From contig OZ024741.1 in assembly GCA_964016885.1 (NCBI GenBank), positions 109,058,001 to 109,122,000 of the forward strand: DNA of 64,000 nucleotides, written 5' to 3'. Shown here piece after piece: positions 15,415 through 45,905 of this stretch (its first letter is position 1; each line of letters starts with the position of its first letter). The notes under the pieces are model-generated. The model ran no database searches. It was not told where the DNA came from and saw nothing but the letters and a program-made list of their open reading frames with translations. The position numbers and the translations under genes were made by a program. This DNA comes from Eledone cirrhosa (taxonomy: Eukaryota).

Positions 15415-17804
15415 ATTATTAGCTGCAAAAGGGTTGATTTATGGAGTCGCTAAAGTATTTTGAAATATTTTGGTATGACTACATTCTAAACTGAAATACT
15501 ACTTATGGAAACTTTTCGTTTCCTCATTCTGGGATCAATAAATGTTTGTATTTTTAATTTACTCTGTAATTGAGGATTGGTCGGAAGAGCCCAACACAAT
15601 TTTTAGGAATCCTGAGACTGTTGGAGGTAGGACGAAGTGCATCCTTAAATCGGAGACCAGGTATTAATTATTGTACCTAAGTGGTCGCTGCTAAAACCGC
15701 GCAAAATGCCAGTTGGAAGTGTTAAACTGGGCGACGGTTTAAATCTACCACCAAAATATATTACACGCAGATTTGAACCACGAATGCAAAGAGATGGAAT
15801 ATATACGGTAATGCATCTTTTTTTAATCTCAAATCAAACAGTTTATCAAGCCAGTGTCCTTGAGTGGTACCTTATCTAATTGAAATGGAAATGACATAAA
15901 GACAACGTTGAGAAATACCGCAAGACATTTTGCACTTCACTATAATAATAAAAAGTTCGCTGCCTTCATTGATTAACCCTTCACTCTAATAACTACTTTT
16001 CCAGCTACATGGCTCAATCGAATATTGGTTACAGCTCTACACAACAGCATCTTATATTGACATATATCTACGACTAGAAATGCTTGTTTATTAAAGAATT
16101 GGTCGTTGTCTTCTTGAAATCTCAAGTGAAACGAACGAGTTCCTTACTACAACCCTTTACATTCCAATTACAAATTCCAACGGGGTTGATTTGGCATTTC
16201 AGGCTTTTGAGCCCATTAAAATAAGTAGCACCTTTACTTGTTTGAATTGTATAGTCAAACTATTCAATTACCAAAATTCTACTGTCTTATACCTATGTAA
16301 GTATTTGTATCTATGAATGTGTGTGGGCGGGGTCCTAGATACATGTTCGATATGTTGATTTATCAGACTAGGATAGAAGTATTAGCGAGGAGGAGAAGAT
16401 GTCTTGTGGTGCTTACTCTGGCACTCTTCGTTCTGAATTCTAATCGACTGTGACCTCCATGTTTTGTAGAAGGAATCCCTCATTCGATTTAAAACCTGTA
16501 CATTGTCATTCAGAGTTTTAAAGAAGACTATTTTTACAAGGATTCGGTGGAGGTATCTCATTTAGGCATGCTTCCCTGCCACTCACACCATTCTCGGAGG
16601 CCCTAAGAAAGAGCCAAACTAAACAGTACTAATATAATAAACCTCAGCAAACTATGATAAATAGGGGAATGTTATTTATGTTATTGTTTAGCCACGGACT
16701 GGCCCTGAAAAACTGTCTTATGCTTAAAGAATTTCCAGCCATAACCATCCCCACCCTTTGTATGTCAAGGATATGCAATATTCACTTCCATTTTTATACG
16801 AAACAAAGTAACTGATAGATAAATCGGGCAAAAGAAATTGCGGTTCCATTTCTCTTCTTATTGCTAATACTATACACCAGTATCAACACCTGGCAAAAAG
16901 AGGCGGGATTTGAATTCAAAGTTAATATTGCAAATAATCTCATTCAATACTTTAACAATTCCTCAAATCCACTGGCCTCATAGAGTAGTTAAATTCATGG
17001 ATCCCGAAAGGTTCAAATCAACGTTGATCTTGGTGTGATTTGAACGAAATGCACCGTGAGCCGTAACAAATAACGAGACAATAATTCGGCTAATTCTCCA
17101 TTTAAGAACAAATGAGGATGTTTTGAAAATGTAAATGACAAAAAGAAAAAAAGTTTTTATGTTCTTGCATATTTTATATGAATGCTATATATTATATGTT
17201 ACCTCCAGACTAGTAACGATTGTGATGATATATTCTATTAACATTTAAACTGTGTGAGTCTAGCACCAGTCAAGTGTGAATACTTTATATATTACATACA
17301 GTAACAGGATACGACACTAATTTAAATGAGGCCACTTTTATATTTCATATGTGAAAGTACTTCACAGCTGGTTGTGGTAATATATAAAGGATATAATTCA
17401 AATGTCTCTAAGTATGTATGTCTGTATGCATCCATGTATGTATGTATACATATATCTTCTCCTTTCTCTCTCTCTATCTATCTATCTTTCTATGTAACTA
17501 TCTTCGGAGAACTTCAATGATAAAGCACAAATAACCTATATTTATAACGTATATATATGTGTATATATATATATATATAGAGAGAGAGAGGGAGTGTAAA
17601 CGGATAGCTTGTTATATTTAATATATATATATATATATATATATATATATATATATATAAAATTAGAATTGGTGCTCTGAAATAGCGATATGAATGTATA
17701 TATCGTGTATTTATCGTGTATTAAAATCATTTTGAAGACCTTACGCTATTGTTTTAAAGTAGTGACTATGTCACTTATTTCTTTTTTCAGCAAACAAAGG
17801 TAGA

Positions 17805-17852
17805 TAAGCTGACAGATCTCTGTTTCGTACTGTTGGTACTCCTCAGAGCTTA
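17805..17852 (-). ncRNA. Type I hammerhead ribozyme (family C)
   Basis: taagct-CTGAGGA-gtac caaca gtac-GAAA-cag agat ctg-TC-agctta; canonical GUC triplet. Confidence 0.9.
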
Positions 17853-18122
17853 TCACTTCCTCTGCCTGCTGAAAATTATGAATGTTGGATTATTATAGAA
17901 TTCCAGTAATAATCAGGAAGTGATTATACAGAGCGGTTGCCGGTCCAGCAAAAATTGAAAATTAGAATTGGTGCTCTGAAATAGCGATATATATATGAAT
18001 GTATATATAGTGTATTTTGCAATACACTGTATGCTTAATTAAAATCATTTTGAAGACCTTACGCTATTGTTTTAAAGTAGTGACTATGTCACTTACTTCT
18101 TTTTTCAGCAAACAAAGGGAGA

Positions 18123-18170
18123 TAAGCTGACAGATCTCTGTTTCGTACTGTTGGTACTCCTCAGAGCTTA
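18123..18170 (-). ncRNA. Type I hammerhead ribozyme (family C, second tandem copy)
   Basis: Same sequence as 17805-17852. Confidence 0.9.
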
Positions 18171-18176
18171 GCACTC

Positions 18177-18372
18177 CGGACCCGCGCAGTTGCCGAGTGG
18201 TACCCGCGCGAGCGGAAACGACCACTCGAAAGGCCTCCACGAAGGTGGAGTTACGATTTTAGGAATATGATGGGGACTACATGGATGAGGAAGCACGATC
18301 CAGAGAGGAATGGACGGCGTGCTGTGACCATGGACGCCCGACAGACTGATCGGTCAAGGTGATCAAGGTGAT
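18177..18372 (+). mobile_element. 5'-truncated RTE-clade LINE 3' end
   Basis: Translates as 'EWYPRERKRPLERPPRRWSYDF...TWMRK'; ends in tandem 'tcaaggtga' tail repeats. Confidence 0.7.
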
Positions 18373-44174: not shown

Positions 44175-44299
44175 TATATAATGAGGTGGTGTGATATACA
44201 GTATATATAAAACTGTATATATACTGTGATATACAGTATATATAAAACTGAGTATAAAATGTGATTGTTCTTAACTACGTCATCAGTATATCATTTGCA

Positions 44300-44490
44300 G
44301 GGCGATGGATTGGTAGTATCAGTAGAGGATCTGACGCCATGCTTTGGAGCCAAGAGTTACGGCTCTTTATGGTTTGAGTTGAAATCCCGTCGAGGTTAAC
44401 TTTGCCTTTCATCCTTACCGGGTCGATAAAATAAAGCACCAGTAATACACTGGGATAATTGCTGGCCTTGTGGCAAAAGTAGAAATAATT
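44300..44490 (+). mobile_element. tRNA-derived SINE
   Basis: Head 'ttggtagtatcagtagag', core 'ctttgcctttcatccttaccgggtcgataaaataaag', tail 'gctggccttgtggcaaaagtagaaa'. Confidence 0.85.
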
Positions 44491-45181
44491 ATATAATTTG
44501 CATATTGTACAAACTATCCATTTGGATATAATGTTGTGCTGTAATATAAGAATGTTTTATACAGTTCTTGTTAACAAGCTGGTATTGCCTCAGATATCTT
44601 TTGTTTAAAATAAATATATTGGCGTAAAATATTTCCAGGACGTCAGCAGCTGAAAAATCACAAGTCCTTTTATTGCCGTTAACGAATTTAGCTTTAGCTA
44701 GCTTCCCTTCAGTGTAACCTATATTGGATGTCTTTTAAATTCAAAATATAGGCCGAAGTTGCCGTCATATTCCTTCTTAAAGGATTTAGGAATGAATTAA
44801 AGTGCATGTATAAACGCGGCTTGAATTTATTTGCCGTTAGCACTATATAATACTTACAAGTAGTGTGTATATCAACGTTGCATATATAAACTATATTGCT
44901 TGATAACAATTTTCCAGCTAGAAAGCAGTAGTCCCGAGTAACACAATTGCAGTTGGAACTAAGTTCAAATTAAATGCAGTGACGTCCTTTGTTAGGTTGA
45001 AATAGGATATTTTAACCGTGTTTCGACCAAGAATAATATTATGATATTCATGTGCTAAAAGGAAATGCTTCCTAATTATATAAGGAAAGCTTTATCTATT
45101 AGTGTGGCAACATGCATATTATAATGCGAGTTATACAATATAATGACACTAGGTATATTTTTCTTAGTTTTGTTCTCTTAC

Positions 45182-45420
45182 TTGGTGTATTCAGCTTTAT
45201 CTAGAAATCCACTCCAAGCCAGAGGTTCATAGTAATGTGTGGAATGGTCCGTGAAAATAATCCCGTTAAGTGATAAACGGGAAAGCCTCAATAAGACGTT
45301 TTTAACCAGGATTTTAGTTATGCTGCCTCGATGGTTAGAATGTTTATTAATGAATGTATATAAATTTAATATATAAGCTCTTTCTCTCATACACTTAACT
45401 TCAGCTTCTCCCGAATCTCT
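45182..45420 (-). pseudogene. Candidate exon, ADAM (M12B) prodomain-like
   Basis: Acceptor ttcttcatatcatcag| and donor |gtaaga bound an open frame containing 'HRGSI...LNGIIFTDHSTHYYEPL' (ADAM prodomain G.I......Y.EP motif). Confidence 0.5.
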
Positions 45421-45589
45421 CTGATGATATGAAGAATTTAACTACACGGTGTGCCATAATTCAGATTTGGTAGATAATTTCATAACTGTATTAATCTCCT
45501 GTTACAGGCATCCTCTTTACCTAAACGTAAAATAGCAAACTATTTTTATTTTCTCTCTCGTATATATATGTATATGTGTATATATATAT

Positions 45590-45905
45590 ATGAATGTATG
45601 TATAGTATATCTGGCGATACACAGTATGTTTAATTAAAAACATTTTGAAGACCTTGCGCTATTATTTTAAAGTAGTGACTACGTCACTTCTTTTTTCAAC
45701 AAGGGAAAGGATATAAGCTAACAGATCTGTTTCACACTGTTGGTGTTCATCAGATATTAGCACTCGCCGACCTTTGTTTAAAATTATAGAGGCTAGATAA
45801 TCAGTAATAATCAAGAACTGATTATACAGAGCGATTGCCGGTCCAGCAAAAATTGAAAATTAGGATTGGTGCTCTGAAATAGCGATGTATACATGAATGT
45901 ATGTA
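45590..45905 (-). mobile_element. Family C element (~1 monomer, different permutation point)
   Basis: Begins and ends in 'atgaatgtatgtat' (~303 nt apart). HHR at ~45714-45758: CTGATGA-acac caaca gtgt-GAAA-cagatctg-TT-agc. Confidence 0.8.

Follow-up and report, generated by a model that had tools for sequence, protein, structure and literature searches.

A Probable Hammerhead Retrozyme Family in an Animal Genome

Non-LTR retrozymes are an already known kind of mobile element. In the consulted sections of the two papers that describe them in animals (PMC7229834; bioRxiv 10.64898/2026.07.22.740005), they appear as non-coding, self-paired repeats of 150-450 nt that carry one type I hammerhead ribozyme per unit, occur as anything from monomers to long arrays, have a short palindromic stem III and coexist with Penelope-like elements (PLEs). 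Family C of Eledone cirrhosa resembles them in all these respects and, like the axolotl HHR_Amex2 of the same accounts, shows a U-U at the base of stem II. According to the sections consulted, only one of nine predicted retrozyme dimers was cleaved in vitro (bioRxiv 10.64898/2026.07.22.740005).

The second related group consists of the PLEs that carry hammerheads in their pLTRs. The portions of the literature considered here (PMC4209133; PMC8557442) attribute to them 5' truncation, partial tandems, an inverted 5' copy, a one-sided tail of 30-40 bp and a preference for (TA)n, as well as a U3-A8 core variant, families rich in compensatory changes and a proposed circular template, all of which are common to family C. 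Unlike these elements, family C has no RT/GIY-YIG open reading frame (ORF), it is not homologous in sequence to any PLE family sampled in this genome, and its ribozyme has the larger canonical shape, with a bulged stem I and a long distal helix, instead of the minimal PLE form. Chlamys elements such as MRC1 are, in the part of their description consulted, likewise non-autonomous PLE-type elements with pLTRs and head-to-tail insertions, but they have 3' sequence in common with autonomous partners and belong to a clade that lacks canonical hammerheads (PMC8557442).

Compared with the retrozymes as described in those sections, family C consists mostly of dispersed insertions of one to three laps that sit in (TA)n, show tail-out inversions and fall into two fixed classes of ends; the linear and circular unit-length RNAs in which retrozymes are expressed are, for family C, predicted. 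We consider it likely that family C adds one more member to the non-LTR retrozymes, and we put at roughly three in four the probability that it spreads as such by using the enzymes of PLEs. No published description of the family was found in the main texts of the literature searched.

Family C in the Genome and in the Window

The subfamily references define a unit of 314-320 nt with a type I hammerhead motif, in agreement with the 300-320 nt originally estimated. At least four subfamilies exist, 81-91% alike, and the genome holds roughly 20,000 insertions, including dimers, trimers and a head-to-tail array of 42 units (G000:C2:208,895,095-208,908,284). The unit RNA is 62-65% paired, with z scores of -6.1 to -7.8 when folded as circles (elsewhere given as -6 to -8). 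Contigs from three runs of one sample revealed only a high family C copy number, and their size and depth suggest genomic DNA as the source.

The window, that is, the whole stretch of 64,000 nt that was analysed, contains the copies of the original prediction at about the places it gave. On the minus strand, a C1 insertion of 519 nt and 1.6 units occupies 17659-18177 (predicted as 17659-18176), and both of its laps carry one common private change. In RNA sense, its 5' end is truncated at unit position ~270 and its 3' end, at ~168-171, runs into (TA)n at 17613-17659. The downstream ribozyme of this tandem (17782-17877, minus strand; core from 17846, GUC site after 17811) is a complete type I hammerhead with a proximal stem I of 5 bp and a distal stem I of ~20 bp, a fold z score of -5.0 and a cost of 0.5 kcal/mol for the hammerhead fold. 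The upstream one (18100-18177, minus strand; core from 18164, GUC site after 18129) is cut at 18177, where most of the 5' strand of distal stem I is lost and about 4 of 20 pairs are left; alone, its minimum free energy fold is not a hammerhead (z -0.25; cost 4.8 kcal/mol). The two GUC ribozymes predicted to be intact thus do have intact cores and cleavage sites 318 nt apart, but the upstream one is without the greater part of its distal stem I. The accompanying proposal that this copy could release a unit-length RNA is less well supported than the covariation.

The fold-back copy comprises two C2 arms. The minus-strand arm (27985-28264; core from 28148, GUU) belongs to the short-end class, ending at unit position 133, and the plus-strand arm (28279-28594; core from 28395, GUU site after 28427) to the long-end class, ending at ~168. 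The stretches 27975-28264 and 28279-28568 are 97% complementary, and the hammerhead fold comes at a cost of 80 kcal/mol in a transcript that spans the two arms. A C3 insertion slightly longer than one unit lies on the minus strand at 45582-45906 (core from 45753); it carries a private GUU, and two further changes private to this copy disrupt proximal stem I. It had been reported as a differently permuted monomer, and the permutation turns out to be the second of the two fixed 3' ends, that of the short-end class. The fold-back and the C3 near-monomer carry GUU in place of GUC, and both copies are probably inactive. Two supposed fragments prove to be a single 3' piece of ~67 nt from a C2-like copy, devoid of a ribozyme and ending in (TA)n, which lies on the plus strand at 22048-22114 and is mirrored on the minus strand at 22390-22456 within an 850-bp palindrome (21832-22682). 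No frame of at least 90 aa overlaps the three main family C insertions of the window, nor was a host gene recognised in the 64 kb, where Pfam searches of 18 of 104 frames gave one RT and one GIY-YIG.

Ribozyme Structure and Covariation

The family C hammerhead places CUGANGA (or UUGANAA), GAAA and NUH around three stems, with stem I open, and it has a bulge in stem I and a loop 2 of 5-6 nt. The cleavage triplet is GUC in most C1, C3 and C4 copies and GUU in 25 of the 39 C2 copies parsed. The letters cag/ctg of stem III are kept, as predicted, but the gap between them is just 1 nt in C2 and 2 nt in C3, which leaves stem III with 2 bp in cis. The stem III inserts are near-palindromic, with 8/10, 10/10, 8/8 and 6/7 positions self-complementary. 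None of the window copies reaches the Rfam gathering level for a ribozyme; Hammerhead_1, a 45-position model without the extended stem I, matches both tandem sites below threshold (14 bits versus 34).

Compensatory changes in stem II had been noted across three subfamilies. The pattern is stronger than that, with eight variants of stem II. In the fold-back the base pair of stem II is U-U, and the G of its gaaca loop is private to that copy, the subfamily having C. In the core, the pair C3-G8 has become U3-A8 in 64 of 65 C4 copies. Compensated pairs also occur in the distal part of stem I and, outside the ribozyme, in three hairpins. Of 71 pairs, 13 show variation in both partners, against 4.7 expected, and 10 of these stay canonical. 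The covariation is real, exceeds chance and spans the whole unit; such covariation, including the U3-A8 core, has already been described among known non-LTR retrozymes and PLEs.

It could be argued that palindromes are corrected at the DNA level as copying proceeds, and that the compensated pairs arise in this way with no selection for RNA function. Most covarying pairs do lie in hairpins, the subfamilies are few and related, so that the events are not fully independent, and the nine invariant core letters are weak evidence alone in an alignment where 238 of 326 columns are invariant. Such correction is nevertheless improbable as the explanation, since the covarying pairs of distal stem I stand ~70-85 columns apart, G-U and U-U are tolerated where RNA tolerates them, and the exchange of C3-G8 for U3-A8 is a known functional covariation of the core (PMC4209133). 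In genomic copies the mutation rate of the core positions is that of the background (71/2258 versus 2010/61362), which makes it likely that the constraint falls on the propagating template or RNA and not on the inserted copies; this bears out the original reading of the covariation as a sign of selection on ribozyme structure during propagation.

Insertion Anatomy

The anatomy was counted in 117 loci, chosen as the best matches to whole-unit queries, a choice that forces one crossing of the cleavage site per locus. The 3' ends are fixed and lie in (TA)n, the 5' ends are scattered and partial tandems are present. Of 189 outer ends, 173 fall into two fixed classes 34 nt apart, at unit positions ~168 (long) and ~133-134 (short), and 161 are followed by a TA run; this (TA)n target masks any target-site duplications, which in retrozymes exceed 4 bp when present. 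Inversions were found at 72 loci, in every case (72/72) tail-out, and 51 of the 59 with both ends classed pair a long end with a short one. Copying of the long arm by simple fold-back was discarded as the cause of all inversions, given that in 18 of 45 the arm with the short end extends further than its partner. The offset of 34 nt matches the one-sided tail of 30-40 bp of PLEs, which is stated to be unseen in LINE TPRT in the consulted part of PMC8557442, and is on that account a PLE signature.

The tandem at 17659-18177 meets head-to-head, at 18177/18178, the 3' end of an unrelated LINE on the plus strand (18178-18372), which we take to be RTE-like. Mobilisation by this LINE would make the junction a co-insertion, and it is indeed direct, with the tails of both in (TA)n; the same LINE, like family C, ends in (TA)n, and it forms 5' inversions. 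This origin is nonetheless very unlikely, because only one of 45 unidirectional loci has such a junction, the LINE and family C have no common 3' end, and at other loci the 5' junction is with a PLE ORF (L211) or with LINE-like coding sequence of another kind (L064, L197). Moreover, TA is absent from 27 of the 45 5' flanks, a sign that deletion of the target into adjacent repeats is common. The survey of 5' junctions hence gives no support to the RTE-like LINE as a specific partner.

Regarding the template, family C arms cross the cleavage site one to three times with few indels (3/2085 versus 683/64258), and no pile-up of 5' ends is seen there (9 versus 5.5 expected, with a single true end precisely on the site). 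Inherited variants are common to laps and to opposite arms above chance (50 in both versus 21.9 expected; 65 versus 30.9). A long, uncut linear transcript from tandem arrays, with rare ribozyme cleavage and no role for circles, might also serve as template. The 42-unit array could supply linear multimers, stem III is weak, and U-U and GUU are common in C2. In addition, 31 of 81 informative tandem pairs have discordant laps, and subfamily mosaics occur within arms (L008 and four others), for which a single circle is insufficient without template switching. Against such a transcript, lap concordance is well above chance, the ribozyme structure and the C3-G8/U3-A8 pair have been kept through many subfamily changes, and the array consists of a single subfamily, its units matching the reference at 86-94%, which leaves the linear template as a minority option, less probable than a circle yet the most serious of the alternatives.

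Penelope-like Elements and the Partner Question

PLEs are abundant in this genome, with 10,596 GIY-YIG candidates, and the full-length ones show the same insertion pattern as family C. In one of them, L251, two hammerheads 4979 nt apart flank an RT+GIY-YIG ORF of 938 aa, and families A and B likewise end in (TA)n in two classes, with spacings of 68 and 41 nt. An autonomous partner was sought by scoring the best 150 of the 10,596 candidates and examining 50 loci, among which no PLE with sequence homology to family C was found, whereas 24 of 57 Xenopus families match a known transposable element, nearly always a PLE, in the consulted sections of the retrozyme papers (PMC7229834; bioRxiv 10.64898/2026.07.22.740005). 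The partner is for this reason inferred from architecture only. Beyond AT runs, family C has no significant similarity to the PLE termini, and a promoter-like resemblance upstream of the ribozyme, perceived by eye, did not rise above shuffles (z at most 1.4).

The identical architecture of PLE termini, together with a sampling confined to those 150 candidates and 50 loci, would also suit family C copies being leftover pLTRs of an unsampled autonomous PLE, with no independent element involved. We regard this as improbable: the units follow one another head-to-tail for two to three laps, and up to 42, with no ORF between the ribozymes, whereas L251 passes from its end site to the ORF within ~25 nt. 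Family C is more likely a non-LTR retrozyme, one that a Penelope-like RT likely mobilises, probably from circular RNA.

A Model for the Propagation of Family C

Transcription, cutting, circle formation and PLE priming are inferred steps, which we derive from a unit structure, subfamilies, covariation and insertion anatomy that are directly observed. Tandem copies would be transcribed and cut at the NUH sites, probably with the help of double-hammerhead pairing through the near-palindromic stem III. The stem I of ~25 bp, whose strands lie at opposite ends of the monomer, would keep these ends side by side so that they can be ligated into a circle. Next, a PLE RT/GIY-YIG protein would make a nick in (TA)n and use it to prime synthesis at either of two places within the unit (positions ~168 and ~134). 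Copying would run past the former cleavage site for one to three laps and end at random, and the second target strand would often contribute an inverted arm. Once inserted, copies would accumulate mutations neutrally, and new subfamilies would arise only from templates in which the fold is preserved.

A more tentative proposal, which we hold as possible but doubtful, is that family C represents a minimal circular-RNA substrate of Penelope RT, in which a covarying junction of three hairpins at unit positions ~55-150, kept in addition to the ribozyme and adjacent to a pair of fixed priming sites with a spacing of 34 nt, acts as the structural signal by which a PLE protein without sequence homology picks the RNA and sets the one-sided tail.

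As a discovery, family C is ordinary, given that hammerhead repeats of similar size with compensatory changes have been described from many animals, and its value is mechanistic. In the consulted sections of the retrozyme papers, mobilisation by PLEs is inferred from co-occurrence and homology (PMC7229834; bioRxiv 10.64898/2026.07.22.740005), whereas in family C the insertion anatomy itself carries the PLE signature: fixed internal priming sites, a one-sided tail of 34 nt and no stop at the cleavage site. Covariation beyond the ribozyme points to a candidate recognition structure, and the natural series of stem II and C3-G8/U3-A8 variants constitutes a ready structure-function set. If the proposal holds, the 318-nt circle would provide a compact handle on the unsolved transposition cycle of PLEs, with its tandems, inversions and tail.

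Family C Copies in the Window and the Genome

All pieces of family C announced by the original prediction, three insertions and fragments, are present in the window, with mutual identities of 78-88%, and the fragments, at ~22 kb, contain no ribozyme. In the tandem insertion (17659..18177, minus strand; subfamily C1) the RNA sense is the minus strand and the GUC sites of two hammerhead cores fall after 18129 and 17811. Both cores are thus as proposed, but the upstream ribozyme, thought to be intact, is truncated. Rfam scored both sites as Hammerhead_1, below threshold only. The cleavage triplet is GUU in the fold-back (27985..28594; C2) and in the monomer (45582..45906, minus strand; C3). 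Pairing of stem II in every subfamily had also been postulated, but the fold-back carries U-U at the base of this stem, a feature already described (PMC7229834), and the retained cag/ctg stem III amounts in cis to just 2 bp in C2 and C3. The fold-back arms share three private changes and the tandem laps share one. In the MFE structure of the whole tandem region, the 5′ strand of the downstream ribozyme is paired with the 3′ strand of the upstream one, the geometry that would be expected of a released monomer.

Single-unit searches of the 3.0-Gb genome returned 1,756-3,207 first-look candidates each, 40 of which were scored. One hundred evenly spaced 10-kb stretches contained 7 matches (6 clear, 1 at 73% identity), and from this sample the insertions are estimated at ~18,000-21,000 (95% range about 6,600-43,000). 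The window, with three insertions and one fragment per 64 kb, is above average in density. The random sample also revealed a fourth subfamily, C4, and further variants; the working subfamily references are 314-320 nt long and 81-91% alike in pairwise comparison. One array comprises 42 head-to-tail units (25 + 17 matches) of the C4 lineage, spanning two sampled loci (L310:2095 to L311:5284). Neither of its ends lies in (TA)n, and the recurrence of unit variants suggests amplification at the DNA level.

Covariation and Constraint

Covariation in stem II across subfamilies, as initially claimed, is borne out, with compensated switches at all four pairs and U-U confined to the base. The variants are GTAC/GTAC, ATAC/GTAT, ACAC/GTGT, TCAC/GTGT, TCGC/GCGT and ACGC/GCGT (179 of 195 motifs parsed), together with GCAC/GTGC (11/31) and GCAT/ATGC (10/31; two overlapping loci excluded). 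The core is U3-A8 in 64 of the 65 parsed C4 copies and C3-G8 in 108 of 114 C1-C3 copies; U3-A8 cores, and families rich in compensatory changes, are already on record (PMC4209133).

For 65 aligned actual copies, out of 81 eligible segments, RNAalifold predicted 24 pairs, with double changes in 12. In a 71-pair structure, 93.4% of cells are paired and double-change cells number 293 versus 101 in shuffles (0/500). Since this control takes no account of how the copies are related, and the structure itself derives from the same sequences, the count was repeated on subfamily majority lines, where 13 pairs vary on both sides against a null mean of 4.7 (0/100,000 draws). Canonical pairing is retained in 10 of these 13 and in 6 of 11 one-sided changes, the non-canonical cases being the U-U pair and a distal stem I region with a register shift. 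Three compensated pairs lie in non-ribozyme hairpins and, because all of them follow the C1/C4 versus C2/C3 split, they may represent fewer than three temporally independent events. Circular folds of the units have z of -6.1 to -7.8.

Cells unlike the subfamily reference make up 3.1% of the core, 3.3% of other non-CpG positions and 7.6% of CpG. Given the similar core and non-CpG rates, the inserted copies decay neutrally and constraint likely acts on the source RNAs, in line with the selection on ribozyme structure during propagation that had been envisaged.

Insertion Anatomy

Insertions were dissected at 117 distinct loci (five duplicates removed), numbering units from the first base past the cleavage site. 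Of these, 72 are inverted, all tail-out. Among 189 outer ends, 173 lie at about 142 or 168, and 161 adjoin a TA run. In C2 and C3, where RNA can be told from pure TA, the short end maps to 133-134 and the long end to 167-168. The inversions combine a long and a short end in 51 cases, two short in 4, two long in 4 and another end in 13. A single crossing of the cleavage site was counted in 121 arms, two crossings in 37 and three in 7, and indels there are few; one crossing is forced because these loci are the best matches to whole-unit queries and hence long copies. Neither do 5′ ends pile up at this site (9 seen versus 5.5 expected). These observations point to internal priming on a template without an end at the cleavage site, that is, a circle or an uncut multimer.

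Laps of one arm, like opposite arms, have inherited variants in common above chance, though with exceptions, and five arms resemble mosaics of subfamilies. Tandem arms at two sampled loci (L008:1485-2133 and L211:1357-2035) have laps from different subfamilies or haplotypes.

At its 5′ end, the window tandem adjoins the 3′-terminal 195 nt of an RTE-like LINE. As 5′ junctions at other loci join different elements, this one likely reflects a target deletion beside an older insertion. In the L211 copy the 5′ junction falls inside a PLE ORF, and in another (L197) it joins the LINE family of window 1-4576, whose RT frames (minus strand; RVT_1, 2e-28) are 88% alike to a further locus (L117).

Penelope-like Elements as Likely Partner

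GIY-YIG matches are plentiful in the genome. A near full-length PLE (L251:2772-7900; G000:C1:145,870,772-145,875,900) encodes a 938-aa RT+GIY-YIG frame flanked by hammerheads in both termini, with U3-A8 cores 4979 nt apart. Its end, ~145 nt past the cleavage site, reads TTCTAAT and runs into (AT)n; C1 and C4 end in the same seven letters. CCAAT and a TATA-like sequence lie upstream of its ribozyme. Two end classes also occur in PLE families A (68 nt apart) and B (41 nt apart); family B (L263:3580-8877, L257) has a hammerhead-like motif with GCAA for GAAA, plus a U3-A8 core. None of 50 GIY-YIG loci held a PLE homologous to family C. PLEs have been described as forming partial tandems and inverted 5′ copies, as preferring (TA)n, and as bearing a tail of 30-40 bp, which often occurs at just one end and is not seen in LINE TPRT (PMC8557442).

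Other Elements

The hammerhead at 6097 (+), whose core is U3-A8 and whose stem III is CCGG, resembles those of the autonomous PLE families A and B. An inverted repeat (34878-35438) enclosing a GIY-YIG frame (34888-35322, minus strand) is likely a 5′-truncated inverted PLE copy. Another hammerhead family, with stem III CTAG, occurs at 7901 (+), 9886 (-) and 56219 (-); at two sampled loci (L261, L091), relatives are preceded by an ATGCAAAT octamer and by a TATA-like box, which suggest an snRNA-type promoter. Hammerhead motifs with a long stem II, and with TATGTA as stem III, occur twice in the near-perfect palindrome at 53317-53678, where their cores start at 53416 (-) and 53579 (+); a related motif lies at 59966 (-). 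In the random sample (L091-L170) many other hammerhead families appear, mostly with a TA run within ~250 nt downstream.

A ~193-nt repeat, dispersed and tandem (30176-30995, 20909-21098, 44301-44492), is probably a SINE. A further family forms inverted pairs (26947-27215, 48033-48235, 57165-57419), with a weak tRNA match at 48033-48103. The plus strand at 61484-63980 carries two long frames, of 467 aa and 391 aa, for which Pfam gave no match.

Proposed Mechanism and Outlook

At the level of sequence, family C qualifies as a non-LTR retrozyme. The family is real and well supported, and non-LTR retrozymes as such are already known; they have been argued to derive from PLE termini, and one of nine retrozyme dimers tested was cleaved (bioRxiv 10.64898/2026.07.22.740005). 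Ribozymes are not mentioned in the available part of an octopus repeat annotation.

Starting from the observed structure, covariation and insertion anatomy, tandem copies would be transcribed and the RNA probably cleaved as double hammerheads, since stem III is short and near-palindromic, by the mechanism described previously (PMC4209133). Stem I would then clamp the monomer ends for ligation; RtcB ligation and circRNAs have been reported for other retrozymes (PMC7229834). Finally, a PLE would prime copying of the RNA into (TA)n. We put the probability that family C is a PLE-mobilised retrozyme at roughly three in four; if it is, a circular template is fairly likely. The features worth following are the signature of its insertions and the hairpins that covary next to the priming sites.
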